From: Octopus vulgaris
Lineage: Eukaryota
Assembly (NCBI GenBank): GCA_951406725.2
Contig: OX597835.1
Location: forward strand, 43,524,001-43,588,000
DNA: 64,000 nucleotides
Direction: 5' to 3'
In this document: piece after piece, positions 2,089 through 61,006 of the stretch
How the letters are laid out: each line of letters starts with the position of its first letter
Position numbering within the stretch: position 1 is the stretch's first letter
Program-made: the position numbers and the translations under genes
The notes under the pieces: model-generated
Database searches by the model: none
Seen by the model: only the letters and a program-made list of their open reading frames with translations
What the model was told of the DNA's origin: nothing

Positions 2089-2098
<10 letters not shown>

Positions 2099-2610
2099 TA
2101 AATTAGAGATAAAACCACTATTAGGCAAATCATACAATGAAAAACTTAGCCAATACATAAGATTATTTCATTTATATTATTTAAATATATAACAAAATTA
2201 TTAAAAAAATATAATTAATATAACACTACGATCGTTTCATGGCTGTTAATTTCTTTAAATTTTCGAGTTACAGTCATTCATCAGGTGGTTTAAATATTTA
2301 ACTTGGCGAGGTTTATCGCCAAGTTAAATATTTAAACCACCTGATGAATGACTGTAACTCGAAAATTTAAAGAAATTAACAGCCATGAAACGATCGTAGT
2401 GTTATATTAATTATATTTTTTTAATAATTTTGTTATATATTTAAATAATATAAATGAAATAATCTTATGTATTGGCTAAGTTTTTCATTGTATGATTTGC
2501 CTAATAGTGGTTTTATCTCTAATTTAATATAATATAATATTTTACTATAAAATTGGATTCAATCCTAAATCTGATTTTTCCCTGTAAGTTTGGATTTATT
2601 CCCTAATATT

Positions 2611-2615
<5 letters not shown>
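2089..2615 (+). mobile_element. Palindromic Penelope-like pseudo-LTR with hammerhead motif, in (TA)n
   Basis: ~220-bp arms (2089-2309 / 2316-2536) that appear perfect, 6-nt loop, ~80-bp one-sided tail, (TA)n on both sides. Confidence 0.7.
2334..2402 (+). ncRNA. Putative type I hammerhead ribozyme (mirror copy on - strand at ~2223-2291)
   Basis: CTGATGA 2341-2347, stem II atgactgt...acagccat, GAAA 2387-2390, cgaTC site, imperfect stem I accac/gtagt. Confidence 0.6.
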
Positions 2616-2653
<38 letters not shown>

Positions 2654-18500: not shown

Positions 18501-18611
18501 AAAATGTTATATCTACACCCGAAGACAGGAGTAAAAATGCCATTAATGGTATTATTAATTCTGACCAAAAAAGGCGAGGGAGGAAACCTGGAATTTAGGT
18601 TAATTAAAGAA

Positions 18612-18892
18612 TGCAGATCAGGCCGAAAATGTCGCTAGAAGCTAGGATCACCAAGCATAGATTGGCATATTTCGGTCATATTATGCGGAGAAAATCCCTG
18701 GAGAAGGACATCATGCTCGGAATGGTCAGCGGCAAGAGAGGAAGAGGCCGACCAAGAACCCGCTGGCTTGACACCATCACGAGTGATACCGGAATGGACA
18801 TAGCCAATCTGAAAGAAGCGGCCCAGGATAGAACTGACTGGAGGACACTGATCCAACGAGTAACCGAGAGTCGACTTCGACTGAGCGGAAAC
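18612..18892 (+). mobile_element. RTE-clade LINE 3' fragment
   Basis: RLAYFGHIMRR..LEKDIMLGMVSGKRGRGRPRTRWLD..DRTDWR is the RTE/BovB-like ORF C-terminus. Confidence 0.9.
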
Positions 18893-19381
18893 ACCTATAT
18901 AGATACAGTGGGGAACAAGTGTGGTGGCCAACTCCGTATATATTTCGGCCTTATTAAATTTCATCAGGGAAGCATTAACTGTTGTTGCCATATATTTGAT
19001 GAAAGGTCAAGCGGAGGTGGCAACGGGTACATCGTGTTGTCGCCATTGTTCAGTTTCCAGTCAGTCCGAATCGAGCAAGCTTATGATCAAAGGCAATCCA
19101 GATATGACCATATCGTCCTCCTTTTTGTGGCGGTAGAGGTGAAGAAATAGTGTATCCAATATGTCCTTCCTTTGGTTAAACGATAGCGTGTGCGTTAAGA
19201 GGTTTGGCTGCTACTTTCTGATATGTCATCGACCAGGTTGAGCCCTGCCCTTTGTCACGCTACAGTTTAACAGGTGTCTTTGTCTCGAGGAATGCCTGAT
19301 CTAAATGGACCCTGCTCTTGTGGATGTGGGTTGGGGCGTTAAGGAAACTAGTACCGTTGATAAGAAATCTGGAAAACTTTC

Positions 19382-21484: not shown

Positions 21485-22764
21485 GTCTTATACGAACAAC
21501 TTTGAGAAACCCTTTCCTAGAAGTTACTCTGGGCGTCAGCAATGACAAATTATACAGTCAGACTCGCTCAGGGTACTTTTAGGTCAAGCAGTGTGGATTT
21601 TTCCAGAAATCTTTGTCTGACAGTGTCCCCCCGAAAACTGAAAACCAGTTGTTTATAACAGGTTACAATAAGCAATATAATTCGGAAACACGTTAAGACA
21701 GACATTTGTTTGAAAGATTATTTTATTTTAACACAGATTCGTAATATTTCCCACGACCAACTCGCTGTGAACTTATGTGGAACAGTTACTATGTCATGTG
21801 GGTAGGATTAACTTGTTTACTGAGTCCATCGTAAACATTGTTTCGTCGTCACTTTTAACAAGGAATGTCGGCAACAGTGTGGTTGTTGTTGTTGTTGTTC
21901 TTGTTGCTGTGCAGCTCCCAAGCGGATCTATTGTTGTGGTTGTTGTTGCGTATGTGCCTAGCAGATCTATAGTTGTTCTTGTTCACTCACCAGTCGGCCT
22001 AGATTGAGCAAACTTATGTATGATAAAAGGCATTCCAGCCGTGACCATCCCGTTTTTTTTTTCTTTAAGCGATGGTACTCAAACCGACAAATACCGGTCC
22101 CTGTGTCCACCGTACCCCTCTCACCTCCCACCGCCACAAAGGAAAATAGGGAAAATTTTTTTGATCCCTTTTCCCCGCCCCTTTATTAATGAGAAAAACA
22201 AAATAATGGAGTTTGCAGCTATACAACTCTTCTTACTCTGCCATGATGTTGGACAAATTTCACATTTTAAAAACTATTTTAATTTAATTAAACATGACAA
22301 TTTATGTGCCTCGCCCCCCCCCCCCGCCACTGCCCCCCCCCCACATATTTTTCAGTCTTTGCAATCACTCCACCCCATAAGAGAACAAAAAAAAAAACCC
22401 TTTTTAATGCCTCTCCCTTTTTAAGACGGTATCGTGTGATTAGAGAGAGATTTAGCTGCCAATTCTAACAGGTCAAATGACTGTATAGTATTCTGATTCT
22501 GAGTTGTTAATACTTAGAACTAGTGGACATAGTAGTAAGAACCGATGGGTGTAGTAATTAGTAAAAGTTAGAAATGGTAACTATGTTAGTTAGTAAAAGT
22601 TTGTACGATTGGAAAGCCTTTTTCGAGAAGGGTAACCACGTGAGACTTGATTTATCTTCAGGATCGCACTACTAAAGAATTAAAGTAATTTTGCATTGGT
22701 GTGCCTTTCAGAAAGTCCCAAGGGACGCAGAAATAGCACTTGCTAGTTATGTTTAGTAATAACA

Positions 22765-23438
22765 GTACCGATCAGGTAAAGGACCTGGGTATCTTGGTGG
22801 ATTCCTCCTTTTCGCCTTCGGCCCAGTGCGTCCATGCTGCCAACAAAGCACGCGGAATTCTGTTCTTGATTCGACGGTCATTCGGAATGCTCACAGCAGC
22901 CATATTCCTACCACTCTATGTCACGCTGGTGAGACCCATATTGGAGTACGGGATTCAAGCCTCTTCTCCTTATCTCCTCAAAGACATACAGCATCTCGAA
23001 AGAGTCCAGAAGCTGGCTACCCGCATGGTTCATGGTCTCAAAAGTTTTCCTATGAAGAAAGGCTGAGGACGCTCGACCTTTATTCTCTAGAAAAACGCCG
23101 CCGCCGTGGAGATCTCATTCTCGCCCACAACATCATAAGCGGAAAGTGTAACCTCTCGAAAGAGCTGTTCTTCACTCCTGCTCCAGAGCGTCGGCTGCGG
23201 GGTCATTCAGAAAAGCTCTACCTGCGACGATTTCATCTCAATCGAAGGAGAGGAGCTTTCTCCGTCCGGGTTGCGGATCCGTGGAACAAGCTGCCAGACG
23301 AGATGGTGAAGATGCCGACGACCGCTTTGTTCAAAGCCTACCTTGACCTCAAGTGGCCTGAACTCTTTACATGAACACCACCCTGTACTTAACTCCATGT
23401 CCCCCTACATGGCCTTGCTATTTGCTTTTGAGCCAAAT

Positions 23439-25681: not shown

Positions 25682-25682
<1 letters not shown>

Positions 25683-25890
25683 TCAAAATGTGACCTTGTG
25701 TGTACCGTTGGCGATTTTTTTCCCCTCTGTCTTCTCTTCTCTGGATCTTTCCTTCTCCTATGTTTCCGACGAAGAGCTCCGCTCGAAACGTTAAACTCTC
25801 CTTCTTTCCTGAGCGTCCAATAATACTATATTTGTTCCACGTCCTCGCGTTGTTGTCTTTTTTTTGTGCTTTCTTGTTTGGATTAACTTT
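25682..25890 (+). mobile_element. Family E: ~210-bp hammerhead-containing element in (TA)n (Penelope pLTR or retrozyme-like)
   Basis: Homologous to copies at 39143, 40030 and 41480; all TA-flanked. Confidence 0.8.
25762..25796 (+). ncRNA. Minimal type I hammerhead ribozyme (CCGA core variant)
   Basis: gttt-CCGACGA-a-gagc tcc gctc-GAAA-cg-TT-aaac. Confidence 0.6.
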
Positions 25891-28406: not shown

Positions 28407-28758
28407 TATATAAACGGCAAAATGTCTGCGTGTGTGTCCTTTACAGAAATCCACAATTTTTCAGTTAGAGGGCTCGCACTTTCTATGGTCATTCAAAACC
28501 ATCCAAGGGTGGTCATGCACATCTTTACATTTCCCCAGTCACACCGCAAAGCCATTCAAAAATCAATAGAAGTGACTTTTTTGTGAATTTTCTATCCCAA
28601 ACCCAATCAAAATGCCCAAAACTTGATACGCCAATTGAATGCCAGCTAGCTGTATGTGATTGGTCGGAGATTTGGACAGTACTCTCGTGTATGTGCGCAC
28701 GCAGCTGTATATGCATGCACTAGCACTATGACCCGGCAACGCCGGGTCATAGTGCTAA
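28407..28758 (+). mobile_element. Non-autonomous Helitron-like element, copy 1
   Basis: Very similar to 35648-36011; 3' GC-rich hairpin then ctaa (CTAG in copy 2); no TIR or TSD. Confidence 0.75.
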
Positions 28759-34290: not shown

Positions 34291-34556
34291 TATAAAAATA
34301 TAAAAATTTATAAATTTAAAATTTAAATATAAAATTATCAAAATTTATAAATATAAATTTTAAAATTTCAAATTAAATAATTTAAATTTAAATTTAATAT
34401 TTTATATATATTTTGTATATTATATTAATTATATTTATTTTTTGTTATTTATGTTTTGGTTTTTGTCTATCACTGTTTGAGTTGCCTAATAGTGGTTTTG
34501 TCTCTAATTTAATTTATATATATATTAGCAGACACGCGTATTATTATATATATATA

Positions 34557-35647: not shown

Positions 35648-36011
35648 TCTCTCTATTTATAAACGGCAAAATGTCTGCGTGTGTGTCCTTTATACAAATC
35701 CACAATTTTTCAGTTAGAGGGCTCGCACTTTCTATGGTCATTCAAAACCGTCCAAGGGTGGTCGTGCACAACTTTACATTTCCCCAGCCACCCAGCAAAG
35801 CCATTCAAAAATCAATAGAAGTGACTTTTTTGTGAATTTTCTATCCAAAACCCAATCAAAATGCCCAAAACTTGATACGCCAATTGAATGCCAGCTTGCT
35901 GTATGTGATTGGTCAGAGATTTGGACAGTACTCGTGTGTATGTGCGCACGCACGCAGCTGTATATGCATGCACTAGCACTATGACCCGGCGTTGCCGGAT
36001 CATAGTGCTAG
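35648..36011 (+). mobile_element. Non-autonomous Helitron-like element, copy 2
   Basis: a|TC start, 3' hairpin, CTAG|t end. Confidence 0.8.
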
Positions 36012-36307
36012 TATTATATAAAATATCAGACATTATAATCAAGTTAGAAGACAGATCTAATGGATACAAATTTATTAACATATTCACCTACAACTGTTTC
36101 GTTTCACAAGCAAAATTAAAATTACAAAACATATGTAAATATATAATTTTGCATTTCAAGTACCTTGTATGGAAAAATCATTAGGGTGTACAAAAGACAA
36201 TACAACGATTACATTAGGATACATTTGGAACACTCAGAATATATAGACATATTTATTATGTGTGTATGTATATATGTGTGTGTGTGCACGCTGTGCGTTA
36301 AAATTAT

Positions 36308-36793
<486 letters not shown>

Positions 36794-36999
36794 ATACTTT
36801 AATTTTGTTTGTGAAATGAAACAGTTGTAGGTGGATATGTTAAGTAATTAATAAATTAATTCCTATCCATTAAAATCTCTGTATTCTAACTGGATAAGAT
36901 AGCGTCGGAGTTTTATCATGTGTCCGATAATTTATCAAATTTCTTCTTGACCGTTTATTTCCCTCTATCCGTGTTTGTGCCTCTGGTGACTAAAAAGGC

Positions 37000-37935: not shown

Positions 37936-38075
37936 AACTTCTAAACGAGAGTGAGACAGCATGTTTTTTGTCTATCACCTTAACTTCTTGGAGATTTTAG
38001 ATATAATTACACTAATGTGTCCATCTGGTTCTAATTTAATTAAATTCTATGTTTTTGTGCAGCTGAAGATTGCTC

Positions 38076-39017
38076 GGATCTTTTCGGTTTGAACGGCAGA
38101 TTTTTAAAATGATTTCTTTGTAACTAAACACTTTTAAACTTCGTATACTGGTAGAATGTGTTACATAAAACATCTTTTTCTCTTGGCTTTCTTGAGAAAA
38201 TTCTGTAGTTTGTAAGCTATTTGTTGTTTAATGTCTTGCATTTCGGCAATTTCAACCAATCAATGACGTCTATTGAGGTGAATGCAATTTCTCCGGATCT
38301 TTGTCAACAACAATTATTTGCGGTGTCATATGAATTTGTCACTGTTATTTATGAGAAAAAAGATACTCTGTGGCCATAAACCGAGGGGTCACTCGTAAAC
38401 AGAGCTGGATAACAAAACCGTTCCCTCTTTAGTGTCCACTCATAATTATGGCCTTAGTATCGATCTATTGCATTTCAATCTGTTTTAGGGTTAGGGTTAG
38501 AGTTAAGGTTAGGGTTAGAGTTAGGGTTAAAGTTAGGGGTGGGGGGAAGGGTATCTTTTTTTCTTCAGAAATGTAAATAAACCCAATCTGTTTCTTAAAC
38601 GAATATATAATATGTAATGTGTGCAACAGAGAGGGAAATTAAAACTGCATATGTTGTGAACTTAGAATATGTGTTTATTAATAAAAGTTTAATAATGATA
38701 ATCTTTTATTCATACGAACGTAACTGATATGAAATATGTCATAAATAACAGGGACATTTTCTTATGACACTGCAAATAATTGTTGTTGACAAAGATTCGG
38801 AGAAATTGTATTCACCTCAATAAACGTCATTGATGGGTTGATATTGCCGAAATGCAAGAAATTAAACAACAAATAGCTTACAAACTACAGAATTTTCTCA
38901 AGAAAGCCAAGAGAAAAAGATGTTTTATGTAACACATTCTACCAGTATACGAAGTTTAGAAGTGTTTAGTTACAAAGAAATTATTTTAAAAATCTGCCGG
39001 CCAAAGCGAAAAGATCC
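38076..39017. mobile_element. MITE family C, long-TIR form (~270-bp arms)
   Basis: Perfect 8-bp TSD gattgctc (38068-38075, 39018-39025); TTAGGG-like array at ~38485-38537. Confidence 0.93.
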
Positions 39018-39149
39018 GATTGCTCTGCATTTTAAACTGATGTAATGATTGTATTGTTCAATTAAATGGAGTTGCATGAAACGATCGTACTGCATTACCT
39101 CTGGATTTCCTTTACATACATACATATATATATATATATATAATGTATA

Positions 39150-39188
39150 TAGTTTCTGACGAAGAGCTTCGCTCGAAACATAAGACTA
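39150..39188 (+). ncRNA. Type I hammerhead ribozyme in a family E copy (39143-39300)
   Basis: tagttt-CTGACGA-a-gagc ttc gctc-GAAA-ca-TA-agacta; 6-bp stem I. Confidence 0.65.
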
Positions 39189-40101
39189 CCTTCCTTTCCT
39201 TCCCTGAGCGTCTGCTAATACTTTGCTTGTACCCCGTCCTCGCGTTGTTTTTTTTTTTTCTTGTGTTTTCTTTCTTCGTTTTTCTTTTTGTATTAACTAA
39301 TATAAATATATATATATATATATGTCTCTGTGTGTGTCTGTATGTATGCATGTGTTATACACACACACACATTTGTATGTATGCAAGCACGTATGAATGA
39401 ATGTGTGTGAGCGAATATGTGTGTGTATGTATGTATGTATCCATATACTTCACCTATATGTGTATCAAATGCGGAAAGGCACAAATAAAAGATTTTATAG
39501 GTGGGTGTATAAATGAAGTGACCGGCACGCGACAGGTACGATATATAAAACTAACAGGAGTCACATAAAAGGAACAATAAAACAGAAAACAACGTCGAGC
39601 CTGTTCTGTAGGAAGGTGAGAGGAAAATTTTGTAACTTTATAGATAACAACAACAGCCAGAAAAGTGAGTGTGTATATATACGCGCCTTTGTGTGTGTGT
39701 GGTATGTATATGTCTGCGTGCGCACACATACATACAAACAGACACACACACATTCACACATGATATGTTTTTGATGTACTGAAATTATCTTTGTTCTTAG
39801 AGAAGGTAAAACAAACGCCTGCTGGCAATTTTGACCAATTTCACATGAAAAAAGTAAATGTGGTAAGATTTCTTTCCAACTGCATGGTTCCGGGTTCAGT
39901 TCCACTGCATGGCACCTTGGGTAGGTACCTTTTTACTTATAGGGTCGGCCTGACTAAAGTCTCGTGAGTAGATATTTGGTAGACAGAAACTGAAAGAAGC
40001 CCGTCGGATATATATATATATATATATTGTGATCTCTTGAGCACCACCAGCTCAAATATTTTCTCCTCTGTCTTCCCTCCTTGGGATCTTTCCTTCTCCT
40101 T

Positions 40102-40136
40102 GTTTCCGACGAAGAGCTCCGCTCGAAACGTTAAAC
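40102..40136 (+). ncRNA. Hammerhead motif (CCGA variant) in a family E copy (40030-40255), after the (TA)n of a SINE A 5' half
   Basis: gttt-CCGACGA-agagctccgctc-GAAAcgTT-aaac. Confidence 0.6.
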
Positions 40137-40249
40137 CCTCCTTCCCTTCTTTCCTGAGCGTCAATAATACTTTAATTGTTCCACGTCCTGCGTCGCTGTG
40201 TTTTTTTCCCCTTTTTTCTCTTTTTTTCTGTGTTTTCTTGTTTGGATTA

Positions 40250-40304
<55 letters not shown>

Positions 40305-41159: not shown

Positions 41160-41236
<77 letters not shown>

Positions 41237-41240
<4 letters not shown>

Positions 41241-41436
41241 GGTCTCGGGTTGATTCGGGGTTAACCACAGTAAATAAGGTACTCAATACACAGCAGAGTA
41301 AAATTAATTTATTATATAGAAGGAGCTTCTACAGGACTAGAACTGTTTCATTCAAGAGAAATCATCAGGAAGCTTCCTGATGATTTCTCTTGAATGAAAC
41401 AGTTCTAGTCCTGTAGAAGCTCCTTCTATATAATAA

Positions 41437-41438
<2 letters not shown>
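41237..41438 (-). mobile_element. Palindromic Penelope-like element with hammerhead core, in (TA)n
   Basis: Perfect 66-bp arms 41307-41372 / 41373-41438, no spacer, ~70-bp one-sided tail; CTGATGA 41377-41383, GAAA 41396-41399. Confidence 0.7.
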
Positions 41439-41484
<46 letters not shown>

Positions 41485-41557
41485 AATGTGACCGCGTGTG
41501 TACCATTGGCGATTTTTTTCCTCCGTCTTCCCTTCTTTGGATCTTTCCTTTTCCTAT

Positions 41558-41592
41558 GTTTCTGACGAAGAGCTCCGCTCGAAACGTTAAAT
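41558..41592 (+). ncRNA. Minimal type I hammerhead ribozyme in a family E copy (41480-41700)
   Basis: gttt-CTGACGA-a-gagc tcc gctc-GAAA-cg-TT-aaat. Confidence 0.68.
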
Positions 41593-41694
41593 CCCCCTTC
41601 TTTCCTTCCTTCCTGAGCGTCCAATGATACTATTCTTGTTCCACATCATCGCGTTGTGTTTTCTCTTTGTGTTTTCATGTTTGGATTAACTTTG

Positions 41695-42971: not shown

Positions 42972-44445
42972 TTGCTCGGAGTTTGGTTCGGTCCGGACTT
43001 CCAAATGAAGAAGAACTAGGGCGAAATAACGACTAGGGTGGCCACTCTCACCCAGCAATGGGCTGAGAGAAAGCTATCCCTAAAAGGTCGGGCGGAGGTG
43101 GCGAACGCGTACATCGCATCCGTCATCGAGTATCGTCTGACCGTCGTGCCTTGTCCTGACCCTACCATCACCAAACTGGAATGTATACTCTTCCGCTTCC
43201 TGTGGAAGGGAAACGTTCCGATGGTTAGGCGATCCATTTGCTGCCAACACCCGCTAAATGGAGGGCTGGGCATGCCGTGGTTGATGATGCGCAGACATGC
43301 GCTGAGACTGCGACTTCTCCGGTGCTTCATAGACGACGGTGAACAGGTGTGGTTGCCTTTTGTGCGACGCGCTTTCCCGCAGCTCGTCTCCTTGGCCGAA
43401 CTACAATCGTGGATCAAACAGAGACCAAGGCTAGGCGAATGTCACCGCGAGTGTCGCGTTGCTCTCAAGCAACTCTGCCGCCCGGGACCAAACTTGTGCG
43501 ACTTCATCACAACAAAGACTTTCTATAGAGGATTAGTGGAGGGGAGGTGCGACGACGTTCTCGGGCAGAATCTGGGCATCGACGAGGAACACCTGACCCG
43601 CTTGTTCAGGACAACTTTCGGGCGGGACCTATGGACAATTACCAAAGATCCCTGGCCTGGCAGTGCTATCGAGAAGCATTACCTGTTTGGGATAAGCTCT
43701 ACAGGCACGGTTCGAGACACACTAGACCGACTTGCTCGAGATGCGGTCAGAGCGACGAAACCGTTCTGCACGCACTCGTGCAATGTCTAACCATTTCGGC
43801 TGCTGTCAGGTGTGGGACGAGTCCGGCTGTCGGCCGAGTCTATCGTGAAAATTGCACCGCTCCCTTCCCTCAACCGGGAAGGCAAGGCAGTTTTCATCGT
43901 ACTGGTGGCTATGGTGAAAGAATGTGTATGGTGGACTCGAGCGAAAGGATTAGAGACAAACACTTACCCCTCTGGCCAATCGCTCATCAACTTTTTCAAG
44001 TACCACTTGAAAAGGAAGGTGAGAATGGAAAGGCAGGTTTTGTCTCGTGAAAGTTTCAAAAAAAGGTGGGTGAATGTAGCAAAGATGGTGCGTGCGAGTG
44101 ACGAAACCACTTTGAGCATGATCCTGTAAATCGTAAAAGAGAAAGAGAGAACACTTTGCTCTCATGTGTTTATTTCCTCCCTGCCTGAGGTTACCGTGGT
44201 CTTTTCTGTAGGCTTTTCTTTCCACGGATAAACCTAATCTTGTTTGTTCCTTAAAAAAAAAAAATTTCTTTCTGTGATACACGACCCCTTTTGATCGCTT
44301 TTTTTCCCCCGATCCCTTTTGATCGAAATTTTACATTTGTTTCCTTTTTTTCTTTTTCCTTTTCCATCTTCGAAAAGAACCTCTTCAACAACTCTCTGTC
44401 CCATGTGTCTTCTCTGGTTCTGCTTATTCCATCTCGTATCTTTGT
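42972..44445 (+). mobile_element. Tx1/L1-clade LINE 3' fragment (ORF2 C-terminus with Cys/His motif, T-rich 3' UTR)
   Basis: LLGVWFG..W..RKLSLKGR..FRFLWKG..GGLGMP; CSRCGQSDETVLHALVQC; stop codon and frameshifts; ORF ends at 44129. Confidence 0.88.
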
Positions 44446-46944: not shown

Positions 46945-47420
46945 TTTCAATTCAATTCAGTTCAATTTTTATTGGCTCAAAAAGCAAAAGCAAGGCCATG
47001 TAGGGGGACAGGGAGTTATGTACAGAGAGGGTGGTCATACAAAGAGTTCAGGCCATTTCTGGTCAAGAGAGACTTTGAACCGAGCGGTCGTCGGCATCTT
47101 CACTATCTCGTCCGGCAGCTTATTCCACGGATCCGCAACCCGGACGGAGAAAACCCCTCTCCTTCGATTGAGATGAAATCGTCGTAGATAGAGCTTTTCG
47201 GAGTGACCCCGCGGCCCACGCTCTGGAGCAGGAGTGAAGAACAGCTCTTTCGAGAGGTTACACTTTCCGCTTATGATGTTGTGAGCAAGAATGAGATCAC
47301 CACGGCGTCGTCGTTTTTCTAGAGAATAAAGGTCGAGCGTCCTCAGCCTTTCTTCATAAGACAAATGCTTGAGACCAAGAACCATGTGGGTAGCCAGTTT
47401 CTGGACTCTTTCAAGATGAT
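46945..47420 (-). mobile_element. CR1 3' fragment, same family as 22765-23473
   Basis: Near-identical protein (LERVQKLAT...KWPELF) and 3' UTR; tail is (AATTG)n-like. Confidence 0.92.
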
Positions 47421-47689
47421 GTGAATTTAGTGCTGGTTTCTTGTAAAAATGCCACTTCGCCTCGTCGCTGATCAGATTGTTAAAATCTGCAGCCAACATA
47501 TTATGGGTTTTAGAAACTGAAAGGTAAACTACAAAGTAACCCAAAGTAATCTCCCTTGTAGATCATACGCCAAAGTAGTACCAAATTAATTTTTCAACGA
47601 GTTGAAAATAGATTTTTTCCATACCATAGCCGCCACTCGAATAAAACGGAGACTACTTCATTTAAGCCTGTTAGAGAAGATTTCGCCTA

Positions 47690-50514: not shown

Positions 50515-51126
50515 GGATCTTTACCTTTTGACCGACAGATTAAAAAAAATAATTTTTTGTAATTAAACACTTTCAAACTTCGGACACTGGTAGAATGTGT
50601 CATATAAAACGTCTTTTAACTCTTAGCATTTTGAGAAAAATATATATTTACGAAGTTATTTCACGTTAAAGTAGTCCTATTTCGGTAATTCCAACCAATC
50701 AATGACGTGTATTCAGCTGAATAAAATTACTGCCGTTGTTTGTCAACAAGAACTTCCAGCGGTGTATTTTTCGTTTGCCATTGTTATTTACGACATCGTT
50801 GGTGCGTTTGTACTGGTTTTAAGGTTTTAGGGTTAAGGTTTAGGGTTGTCATAAATAACAGTGACAAACGAAATATACACAGCCGGAAGTTCTTGTTGAC
50901 AAACAATGGCAGTAATTTTATTCAGCTGAATACACGTCATTGATTGGTTGAAATTACCGAAATAGGACAACTTTAACGTGAAATAACTTTGTAAATATAA
51001 GCTTTTCTCAAAAACGTTTAGAGTAAAACATGTTTTATATGACACATTCTACCAGTGTCCGAAATTTGAAAGTGTTTAGTTACAAAAAAATATTTTTTTA
51101 ATCTGTAGGTCAAAAGGTAAAGACCC
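50515..51126. mobile_element. Foldback Merlin-like MITE related to family C
   Basis: ~270-bp inverted arms; perfect 8-bp TSD gcggtttc (50507-50514, 51127-51134); TTAGGG-like centre. Confidence 0.93.
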
Positions 51127-57223: not shown

Positions 57224-59470
57224 TGTGGGATGACGTCAGCAGCTGGGGAGCTGACCGGAACTTGGGGCTGACCGGAAGAGGAAGGGGCAGGAGTGACGCG
57301 CGCTCCGAAGATCCGGCAGTGCTTAAGTCCGTCCTAGCGAAAGAGGACAAGATTAGAAAGGCCACCAGTTCCTACATTTTGGTGGACGAAACTGTAGTGC
57401 CAGCCAACGGAGAAGTTCGGACTAATTGCGAAGCCACCGGAGTCGATGGAAGGGGGAGCCGCGCTGGGGCTGAAGCTGCGAAGAGATAGATCAGGTGAGT
57501 TGGTGTTCCGGAGAGGGAATGAAATCCCAGAGCTGAGTTCCAGCGACAGCAAGAGAGAGCTGTTCTCGGTGTGTGGGAAGTTGGTCGGTCACTACCCGAT
57601 CGCTGGATGGCTGCGTTACAATGTGCAGTTACCCCAAGTGACGAGCGGAGACGGAGAGTTGGGGCGACAAGGTGGGAGGAAGGGACGGTAGCGATGATGC
57701 TGGAAATCCTAGAAAGGACGAAAGCGGAAGACCCGGTCAGGGGGAACTGGTATGTGCCGAAGACGGAATGCGGGACCGTCTGGTGTGATGCTAGCAGTAT
57801 AGCGATAGGGGTTGTGTTGGAGATCGAAGGCGCTGCGGTGGAGGACGCGGCCTGGCTTCGGAAAGCAGACGACTTCAACTACATCAATGTCGCTGAATTA
57901 GACGCGGGGTGAACTTGGCCCTGAAATGGGGGCTGCGCTCAATTGAAATCCGGACAGATTCAGCCACTGTGCTTGGCTGGGTAAGATCGGTGATCACCGG
58001 TGAAAGGAGAGTTCGGACGAAAGGTGCCAGGGACATGTTGGTGAAGCGCCGTCTAGGAGTTCTTGGAGAATTGATTGCCGAGTTCGGACTGAAGCTGAAC
58101 GTGGTTTTCATGCCTTCGGAGAAAAACAGGGCAGACGCACTGACCAGGGTGAAAAAGGCGTGGTTGGAGAAACCGGAGGAGGCAGAGAAAGGGATAGCTG
58201 CGGTGTGTCGGTTGGATGACTCCGAACTGAAGAGACTGAAGATGCTATGTATCACTTGGGTGTGGACAGGAACCTGTATCTGGCGAAGAAAATTGATGCT
58301 GACGTTACTAGAAGCACCCAGAAAGTGGCCGGGAGCTACGAAAGGTGTCAGTCCATTGACCCTGCTCCGTGTGGGCATGAGCAGGGAAACCTTTCGGTGG
58401 AGCACAACTGGAAAAGGCTAGCTGTGGATGTGACGCGCTACCGTGAGGGAATGTATCTCTCCATGGTCGACTGCGGGCCGGGCCGGCTGGCCATTTGGAG
58501 GGAGTTGAGAACGGGCATTGCTGACGAGATTGCACAGATCTTGAACGGGATATTTTTAGAGAGAGGTCCCGTGGAAGAACTGCTAATGGACAACGGGGCG
58601 GCGTTTCTTTCGGAAGCATTGAGGGATATGCTCGACCGGTGGAAGGTGCGTCGCTTGTTCAGAGCAGCGTATAGGCCGAGCGGTAACGGGATCGTAGAGA
58701 GGCACCATCGGACAGTCAAGGCCACAGCGGAAAGAGGGCACATTTCGCCGCTTGAAGCAGTTTTTTGGTACAACATGTCTCCCCGATCCGGACAAGCTGA
58801 AGAATCTGTGCTGCACAGAGCTGTATTTAGATATGAATGGAGGCACCCGAGAAAAGCGCCGAAGGGCCACGAGGAAGAGAAGGGATCCGCTTGCATGAAA
58901 ATAGGGGAGGAAGTCTGGGTTAAGCCACCGAAGGCGCATTGTTCGTCTCAATGGAGCAGAGGAACGGTGACGGCGGTCAATTCCAGAAACAACGTCTCCG
59001 TGGTTGGAATGCCGCGACATGTCTTGGACCTTCGCAGGATTGTCGCTTCGTCGGACGACGATTGTGGAGAGGGGGAGAACGAGGTGCCTAGCCTGAGAAG
59101 ATCTCGACGCGCGAGGCGCCCTCCCGGTTTGATGGTGGACTACGACGTGGAGTAGAGAGAATGTGATCTTTAAGATCAGGGTGGCGTGAGGGATGACGTC
59201 AGCAGCTGGGGAGCTGATCGGAAATTGGGGATGACTGGAAGAGGAAGGGACAGGAGTGACGCGTGCGCAGGCAGGGCAGCATTGGGCCTTTTTTCAATCG
59301 AGGTAGCCGAGGAGTCGGACGTGTGAGCTCGTTGTTAAGGTAGGGGAAAAGCAGCTGCTATTTCTAGTGTTCGGGTCGGGCCGCGCGGAAGGGTGCATTA
59401 CCACTGGGGAGGTCTCCGTCAACGAAGAGAAGGTAGGTGTCCTTATTTCAAATCTCCCGCATACAACACA
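57224..59470 (+). mobile_element. Ty3/Gypsy LTR retrotransposon, internally deleted
   Basis: TG...CA ends, TSD ttctc (57219-57223, 59471-59475), partial 5' LTR 57224-57300, 3' LTR 59187-59470, purine-rich tract before the 3' LTR. Confidence 0.9.
57301..59155 (+). pseudogene. Frameshifted pol remnant: RNase H plus integrase
   Basis: WCDASS..INVAELDA..IRTDS (RNase H); HLG..CQ, LAVDVT, LLMDNGAAF, GNGIVERHHRT (DDE integrase). Confidence 0.9.
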
Positions 59471-61006
59471 TTCTCCTCCCCTTCTCTTTATTACCCTCCC
59501 TCACTACAACCTTTTCCTCCTCATTCTCTTACTCACCCTGTCCTTAACCCTTTCTTCTTCCGCAAACAAACCAGTTTACTCCCTCCCTCTTCATCTTGAT
59601 ACATCTCTTCTCCCTCCACACTGCTCATACCGTTTATCTCTTTCTGATCCATTTGATCCATGTACAATGATGTTCCCGCCACGACCACCTTTCTTATAAT
59701 TAGACGGTATATGTAGGCTGTTCGTGTTAGCACCGGTCAGTTTTGTAATCGGACTGTGTGTGTGTTTGAATTAGGGTTTTTGTAGTATATTATGGCTACA
59801 TAACGAAATACGATGTCCCTACCAGCCATTAGTGGGTACTACCAGTTGTCAGGAATGTGTTCTATGTAAAATAGGGATATCTAATTGTGTTACACCGCTA
59901 AATTTAGTAGATAATTAAGCAATATGTTCATGGATGGCTAATGGATTGGATGTGGTACTGAAGAAGGAGCAAGAACTCCTGAAATGTGCATATACACCAA
60001 TTATCTTATTTTTCTATCTTCAGTCGCAGTGTTTACATAGACGTATTCATATATGAAACGTCGTAACTTTCAGGACTGGCTCTAATTTCTAGAGAAAATC
60101 TTTCGGGATAACTTTTAAAAGTGACTTTTATACATGAGAAGATACTTAAAAGTTCCTGTCTTTTGGTAAAAGAAAATACAGGTGGATCAGTTAATTATGA
60201 TTTTATTCAATATATCCTCCTCTCAGATTCATACATTTATTGCAACAGTCCTTCAGTTTTTCTAAACCCTGTAAAAGCCAGGCCTTTCGCGATATCCTTG
60301 AAGCCAGGAACTTTTCAGTAGCCCCTCGTATGCACTCAGCTCTGAAAGCACTGCTTCTTGTTGTAGAAACACCTGTTCTTTGCCATTCTTTAATGAACTA
60401 GCATAAAAGCTGCACTCTGTGTTTTTAAGTTAGCTCCTGCCGATGGCCAATTGGGTCTGTAGCCCCAAACTATAGAGAGCTAAATAGCATGACTTTAATA
60501 CATCTACAATGACTATATGGCCCCAGTGGTGTTTGATCAGAGGTTAAGGACGGATGAGAATTAATTCTGTAATACAAACATTCTATTGTTCTAAGATGAA
60601 TTCCAACTGTTGCTTAATTTGTCCCAAAGTCCTTATCTCGATGTAAAATTAAGGAAGCGAATGTCATTCATCTCCCTATTAATTTCTAACGTCATCTGAA
60701 TCAGCCAAGCTTCACCTGCTAGAAATAGCAACCCAAATGCTTTTAAATCAGATGCCAATGCTGGATGTTCTAGAACCAAATGAAGGGCAAATTTTCAATC
60801 CCGGGATCACCCTGTTTCCAAAAAGGTTATAATATGTCAATGTAGAGCAAATGTAGAGAGAAATACAGGGGTCCCAGGCGGACAGACAGAATTTCGCTTT
60901 TATTAATAAAGATTTTATGCTCTCTTGACGCTTTTTAAAACTCTAATGTATAAGTATATTGAGTTTTGACAACTGGTTTTCAGGATCATTATGCCGAAGC
61001 GAAATC

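Follow-up and report, generated by a model that had tools for sequence, protein, structure and literature searches.

Palindrome, one-sided tail and flanking (TA)n tracts

Positions 41196-41480 of the window, by which we mean the whole analysed stretch of 64,000 nucleotides, harbor a perfect palindrome without spacer (41307-41372|41373-41438) whose arms measure 66 bp each. It was recovered in an exhaustive inverted-repeat scan of the window (perfect arms of at least 15 bp, spacer 0-30), in agreement with the initial annotation. The axis lies between 41372 and 41373 within the self-complementary AGCT at 41371-41374, while the outer boundary is uncertain by ∼4 AT-rich bases. The sole longer palindrome of the window has arms of 221 bp and a spacer of 6 nt (2089-2309/2316-2536); the remaining output consisted of hairpins of 15-17 bp or of microsatellite, and no other non-microsatellite arms exceeded 17 bp.

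The left arm (41307-41372, 66 bp, sense on the minus strand) represents the main, 5'-truncated copy, which continues 3' of the arm end into a one-sided tail of 69-70 bp (41237/8-41306, minus strand), close to the ∼70 bp originally estimated. Arm and tail form a unit of 136 nt that runs on the minus strand from the axis to the (TA)n, and A and C account for 21/26 of the tail's final nucleotides. The right arm (41373-41438, plus strand) is complementary to the left one at 66/66 bp and constitutes an inverted copy of the same sequence minus the tail, so the two arms are arranged head-to-head. Altogether the locus comprises 202 bp, including the perfect 132-bp palindrome. The tail borders on a (TA)n tract at 41196-41237, the likely target site, which is preceded by a (CT)n run. 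The right (TA)n tract (41441-41480) is shared, as had been noted before, with the abutting 5' end of an unrelated repeat copy at 41480-41693, which belongs to family E, a TA-embedded unit of ∼210 nt with a minimal hammerhead of the type known from Penelope-like elements (PLEs). By a rough estimate based on 41 tracts, a segment with both ends on TA tracts is expected by chance with a probability of ∼5e-5. No target-site duplication of the palindrome is discernible within the (TA)n.

The 'family' of the initial annotation is a single locus within the window, since neither blastn and nhmmer nor a covariance model trained on just the two identical arms detected a second copy there. The best other matches (blastn E 0.12-0.47, nhmmer E at least 1.1, covariance model E at least 0.36) were judged not real, and the 16-nt matches at 36815 and 36088, both devoid of the core described below, were rejected as further copies. 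A resemblance of the tail to a local SINE (80% over 25 nt, E 0.47) was not significant. An exact 26-nt stretch of the arm had 0 matches in bacterial and archaeal genomes, which is uninformative for an animal repeat. The sub-threshold matches to Rfam miRNA hairpins are caused by the palindrome, and a miRNA reading was dropped.

The longer palindrome belongs to an element at 2089-2619 (plus strand; 221-bp arms, 6-nt spacer, 83-bp tail). As already noted, the two elements have their architecture in common, with inverted arms, a one-sided tail, a hammerhead and a TA context, and show no significant sequence similarity (514/2000 shuffles score equally well). An AT-rich look-alike at the arm/tail junctions was considered as a sign of homology and discarded (195/2000, not significant).

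Identical arms could also have arisen if an original of plain arm and tail was inverted after insertion, by repair or replication fold-back near the (TA)n, or if the palindrome is a library or assembly chimera. In favor of this, the arms are 100% identical, (TA)n tracts break easily and chimeric fold-backs are a familiar artefact. At both 41237 and 2089, however, the inverted part ends inside the element, ∼70 bp short, with no flank copied, and such asymmetry is the published signature of PLEs. We regard such a later inversion or chimera as quite improbable.

Hammerhead motif in the two arms

The plus strand holds a type I hammerhead motif at 41371-41421, and an identical motif occupies 41324-41374 of the minus strand, with its core starting at 41368. 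The conserved elements CUGANGA, GAAA and UH follow each other in order on the plus strand (41377-41383, 41396-41399 and 41414-41415). The core CUGAUGA (41377-41383) begins after 4 nt of the arm, as reported initially, and is followed by helix II (41384-41395), with a U.U at its base, 3 Watson-Crick pairs and a UCUU loop of 4 nt, by GAAA (41396-41399) and by helix III (41399-41402/41411-41414), with 4 bp and an 8-nt loop around a central CUAG. The predicted cleavage triplet GUA (41413-41415) is directly followed by the 3' strand of helix I (41371-41376/41416-41421, 6 bp). Cleavage is predicted 3' of A41415 on the plus strand and after the A at 41330 on the minus strand. Helices I and III close the core, and the open ends lie in helix I, which corresponds to the type I topology.

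The initial annotation had read 'GAAAcagTT' downstream of the core and had found stem I unclear. That parse provides 0 helix-I pairs, whereas the one given above yields a helix I of 6 bp together with helix III and H17 at 41415. Seven candidate parses were enumerated for the core at 41377, and helix I forms in 1/7; the initial parse, which places cleavage after GUU at 41404, was rejected. A strict descriptor (helix I of at least 4 bp, II of at least 3 and III of at least 3 plus an A-U pair, with thresholds set post hoc) had the two arms as its sole matches in the real window and matched none of 300 block-shuffled windows. When the arms were shuffled, the core words alone appeared in 1,977/200,000 cases (∼1%) and the complete motif in 0/200,000. 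The hammerhead motif is thus real, as originally claimed, while self-cleavage is only predicted from the sequence. Two further hammerhead-like words, at 59958 (plus) and 63862 (minus), were seen in a wobble-tolerant scan only and fail the strict one; both lie outside any palindrome or TA tract and are probably due to chance.

These counts also bear on the possibility that the palindrome is a hairpin MITE or foldback DNA transposon at TA, with a hammerhead present by chance or captured and with an unrelated flank in place of the tail. Perfect inverted repeats in a TA context would fit such an element, the window contains MITE-like sequences (38074-39019), and palindromic DNA elements are known, such as Harbinger in frog (PMC5625713). 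Against this stand the absence of the complete motif from the 200,000 shuffled arms and the exact end of the tail on (TA)n, which recurs in the 2089 element; two unrelated elements display the same asymmetry. Moreover, un-inverted pieces of 2089-type sequence are present elsewhere (34449-34526 and 39029-39092). As for the features by which MITEs are recognized, the inverted repeat is present but asymmetric with a tail, the window holds a single copy, and a target-site duplication is not discernible in the (TA)n. Taken together, a DNA transposon is a very unlikely source.

Folded without constraints, the 51-nt segment adopts a three-way junction that contains the parsed helices I and III. Pair probabilities in this segment reach 0.72-0.99 for helix I, but helix II, with its U.U and three Watson-Crick pairs, is weakly populated (0.12-0.17). 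With only 4 nt of its own axis side, helix I drops to a probability of 0.05. The fold energy of the isolated hammerhead is ordinary (z 0.17; 108/200 shuffles are as stable). A competing local hairpin of 8 bp with a 3-nt loop (41408-41430, ends approximate, plus strand) straddles the predicted cleavage site and captures the 3' strand of helix I. The Rfam hammerhead models gave no match to the motif, either at the gathering threshold or at E up to 10, and they likewise miss the 2089 motif and the textbook-like family-E motif. A natural, weakly self-cleaving axolotl hammerhead (HHR_Amex2) is reported to carry a U.U as well at the base of helix II (PMC7229834). By eye, no open frame was seen to start inside the motif.

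Fold-back point and ribozyme core

In the palindrome, 4 nt separate the axis from the core and 43 nt separate it from the predicted cut; beyond the cut the arm ends at 23 nt and the tail at 93 nt. The corresponding distances in the 2089 element are 25 nt from axis to core, as stated in the initial annotation, 83 nt from axis to cut, 138 nt from cut to arm end and 221 nt from cut to tail end. Since the uncut site is contained in all four arms of the two elements, the template should have been an uncleaved RNA and the axis was not defined by cleavage. That self-cleavage supplied the RNA end on which the cDNA turned back is consistent with the complete hammerhead motif, but the predicted scissile bond is 43 nt 3' of the axis, both arms cross the uncut site, the 2089 element behaves likewise, and the axis shows no sign of a further ribozyme site upstream. 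This origin is hardly credible, and the link between fold-back and cleavage that was entertained before is not supported.

Two of the six helix-I pairs use bases beyond the axis, which has a chance of ∼1 in 8 to 1 in 16. This suggests that the parent already had AG in front of CTTC, and that the join took place on a self-complementary AGCT native to it. The AG at the axis was also considered as an intron acceptor, by analogy to D. virilis (PMC4209133), but this was dropped because any CT fold-back creates AG.

The initial annotation had also connected the fold-back to ribozyme structure and had called for the axis positions to be plotted relative to the core. Within the window, the two fold-back axes precede the core by 4 and 25-28 nt, and the 5' ends of the family-E copies lie 82, 84, ∼76-78 and ∼4 nt upstream (n=4). 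The significance of this proximity depends on the null: both axes fall within 28 nt of the core with p 0.11, 0.035 or 0.009 for uniform nulls of 85, 150 or 300 nt, and at least 2 of 6 ends fall within 8 nt with p 0.10, 0.037 or 0.010 for the same nulls, the distance windows having been chosen after the fact in both cases. The 85-nt null corresponds to cDNA ends bounded by the leader, as suggested by the local family-E copies, and the shorter nulls are fairer because cDNAs derived from a pseudo-LTR (pLTR) are bounded by a short leader. The degenerate fragment at 39029, whose boundary abuts a MITE-like arm, was excluded from these statistics. With two events in the window, any clustering of fold-backs at helix I is at most putative. 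We found no mapping of a palindrome axis against a hammerhead core in the literature consulted, although subscription papers or supplements may contain one.

If ribozyme structure sets the fold-back point, the reverse transcriptase may stall at a protein-bound helix I, or two template RNAs may be held antiparallel via a self-complementary helix III, whereupon two cDNAs would end beside the core and join head-to-head. The axis inside the 5' strand of helix I, the 2089 axis 25-28 nt upstream of its core and the beginning of 1/4 family-E copies (39152) ∼4 nt before the core are in agreement with this, as is the predicted self-dimer of the helix III segment (−12.8 versus −1.4 kcal/mol for the hairpin). 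The predicted dimer makes a pairing of templates conceivable. Published work adds that PLE hammerheads act as dimers (PMC4209133) and that the hammerhead of Poseidon PAc is protein-assisted (PMC11167929). On the other side, the p value of 0.11 under the 85-nt leader null is based on n=2 fold-back events, 3/4 family-E copies begin 76-84 nt upstream of the core, and ascertainment plays a role, as only core-containing palindromes were noticed. Long palindromes are likely to be lost or misassembled, which counts against this reading as well. Furthermore, Naiad PLEs without canonical hammerheads still yield inverted copies (PMC8557442) and hammerhead mutants insert normally in vitro (PMC11167929). 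A structural determination of the fold-back point, which would be compatible with the PLE origin proposed below, appears rather doubtful. A more specific variant, in which the hammerhead is a template-pairing device instead of, or besides, a cutter, is unlikely: two uncleaved RNAs would kiss via helix III, a dimeric PLE protein would copy both of them from opposite-strand (TA)n nicks, and the cDNAs would join at the 5' strand of helix I.

A minimal Penelope-like insertion as probable origin

The layout of the locus itself has already been described for PLEs, a known class that the initial annotation had left unnamed. Published PLE insertions show strong 5' truncation and frequently carry a second, inverted and likewise 5'-truncated copy immediately at their 5' end; further traits are a tail of 30-40 bp at one end, pLTR hammerheads near the 3' end and (TA)n targets (PMC8557442). 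Head-to-head PLE junctions exhibit palindromes and microhomology, and self-priming has been proposed (PMC3846280). The purified PLE protein nicks and extends both strands of AT-rich DNA in vitro, starts at two internal sites bounding the tail and uses unprocessed RNA, and insertion in vitro is independent of hammerhead cleavage (PMC11167929). Type I hammerheads in pLTRs are mostly dispersed single motifs, with some opposite-strand pairs 100-700 bp apart (PMC4209133). Judged by this comparison, the visible features of the locus all appear on the published list, but the tail of 69-70 bp is about twice as long as the published 30-40 bp and is assigned to the element by layout alone. Other TA-embedded fragments with a PLE-type hammerhead are present in the window, namely the 2089 element (83-bp tail) and four family-E copies.

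We propose that palindrome and tail probably represent a minimal 5'-truncated insertion, made by the reverse transcriptase/endonuclease of a PLE from uncleaved hammerhead RNA, and that the ribozyme is predicted to be silenced. A GIY-YIG endonuclease would nick the (TA)n tract, and reverse transcription would then proceed from two start sites ∼70 nt apart, one corresponding to the tail end and the other to the arm end. Synthesis would halt 4-6 nt upstream of the ribozyme core. The self-complementary AGCT would then serve as the joining point, through annealing of the two cDNA ends or through snap-back self-priming, both of which lead to the same sequence. As parent we envisage a PLE pseudo-LTR or a non-autonomous element derived from it, and the family-E copy would have arrived separately in the same TA tract.

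Upon read-through of either strand, the antisense arm would be made first and would trap the ribozyme in a 66-bp duplex. The modelled read-through RNAs have an MFE of −116 (minus) and −135 kcal/mol (plus), with probabilities of 0.00 for the hammerhead helices on both strands. The palindromic copy is therefore predicted to be a dead end that could, at best, yield double-stranded RNA. That this copy may be inactive, as initially supposed, thus agrees with the prediction for its present context, but the predicted cause is pairing of the inverted arm with the ribozyme and not a defective stem I.

Membership in the PLEs is putative: a Pfam scan of 108 window ORFs revealed no PLE reverse transcriptase or GIY-YIG domain and yielded LINE and LTR-retrotransposon remnants only. 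These 108 were taken from 234 complexity-filtered ORFs of at least 60 aa and comprise 94/121 of those with at least 80 aa, the others having been dropped by eye (SINE-derived or overlapping frames), and 14/21 shorter ones near the locus. A search of the Craig 2021 supplement for two motifs, the 26-nt arm stretch included, gave 0 matches. For one octopus genome, 190 Penelope-like families covering 6.83% of the genome were listed (PMC13282606); 'hammerhead' and 'palindrom' do not occur in the available parts of its text and supplement.

The closest known counterparts are the inverted pLTR/tail structures of EN+ PLEs (Penelope/Poseidon, Neptune, Naiad; PMC8557442, PMC3846280, PMC8969392). These share with the octopus locus a head-to-head 5'-truncated copy with a junction palindrome, a tail at one end, a hammerhead near the 3' end, a (TA)n target and a target-site duplication that is not discernible. 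In contrast to them, the palindrome has no ORF-bearing body (202 bp in total); its spacer is zero nt, a direct tandem pLTR is lacking, and the tail is longer (69-70 versus 30-40 bp). In Poseidon PAc of Anolis (PMC11167929), likewise, copies span the uncut hammerhead and have two end points 3' of it, the target is AT-rich and the tail end AC-rich (21/26 nt here). PAc differs in its minimal hammerhead with an ORF start in stem II, while helix III at the palindrome is a real 4-bp stem and the end points are farther apart.

With the minimal hammerheads of metazoan PLEs (PMC4209133), the motif shares the type I arrangement, the CUGANGA/GAAA/UH core and the self-complementary character of helix III. 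It lacks their G10.1-C11.1 pair and long helix II, and has instead a helix I of 6 bp, a helix II of 3-4 bp with U.U and a helix III of 4 bp with an 8-nt loop. It is nearer to the canonical 6/4 geometry and to the fungal/protist type with long helix III than to the minimal form, which in this window is shown by family E and not by the palindrome. Non-LTR retrozymes, too, are non-coding and carry a near-canonical type I hammerhead (PMC7229834; bioRxiv 10.64898/2026.07.22.740005), and the U.U at the base of helix II is shared with axolotl HHR_Amex2 (PMC7229834). Mobilization by PLEs has been proposed for retrozymes, so a non-autonomous parent is possible; the tandem layout, however, is absent. 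Unlike the head-to-tail tandem repeats of retrozymes, the palindrome is head-to-head, forms a single locus in the window and is truncated within helix I. No tandem hammerhead unit was found at the palindrome, the next hammerhead (41562) belonging to an unrelated family (1641/2000 shuffles).

The palindrome gives a clean and tiny instance of a retrotransposon footprint already known, from a sequence family not described before; its hammerhead is near-canonical and its tail unusually long. How the tandem and inverted structures of PLEs are formed is still unexplained (PMC8557442, PMC11167929), and minimal palindromic copies record, to the base, the two start points of reverse transcription and the point of joining. 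If many copies had their axes fixed at helix I, this would point to a role of the PLE hammerhead that in vitro cleavage mutants leave unseen. Were the pairing of templates true, axes should cluster immediately 5' of CUGANGA in unrelated families, each palindrome locking its ribozyme in a perfect hairpin, and the present genome, rich in TA microsatellites, would hold enough palindromes to map the inversion step of PLEs. Such palindromes are also putative ready-made double-stranded RNA, comparable to the palindromic repeats described as editing substrates in PMC5625713.

The four family-E copies (41480-41693, 25682-25889, 40028-40253 and 39152-39300) have a hammerhead with a palindromic AACGTT helix III and an extra A before helix II, and the cores of two copies read CCGACGA instead of CTGACGA. 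The copy at 39152 starts ∼4 nt before the core without fold-back. Similarity between the palindrome and family E is not significant (1641/2000 shuffles), and although the plus-strand hammerhead of the palindrome and the family-E hammerhead stand head-to-tail, 185 nt apart (41377-41590), this pair is likely a coincidence of a common target, the families being unrelated. The hammerhead of the 2089 element (2341/2284) has a 3-bp helix I, a long helix II and a palindromic helix III. Two degenerate, un-inverted relatives of this element were observed: 39029-39092 contains a mutated hammerhead region (0/2000 shuffles), and 34449-34526 is an arm-end fragment without tail that ends in TA repeats.

The window as a whole is microsatellite-rich animal DNA with a GC content of 32-51% per 2 kb, many SINE copies, LINE ends and an LTR-retrotransposon remnant. 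We take its SINEs to resemble those of octopus. The remnant (57398-59152) comprises several frames with DUF7047, weak RVT_3 and rve integrase matches. Among the LINE 3' fragments, 43020-44129 has a zf-RVT match at 43529-44047, those at 22737-23374 and 47035-47562 are inverted copies (91% over 335 nt), and a further one at 18608-19150 was named by eye. ARAGORN predicted 0 genes on the window. The MITE-like element at 38074-39019 has arms of 281 bp that are 94% complementary, a related arm at 50846-51097 and a short (TTAGGG)-like run at 38490-38535. Another repeated element, possibly of the Helitron or MITE type, contains a tight GC-rich hairpin with 17-bp arms followed by AT-rich sequence (28721-28757 and 35965-36010), and a copy of it near 36060-36860 is interrupted by a SINE pair.
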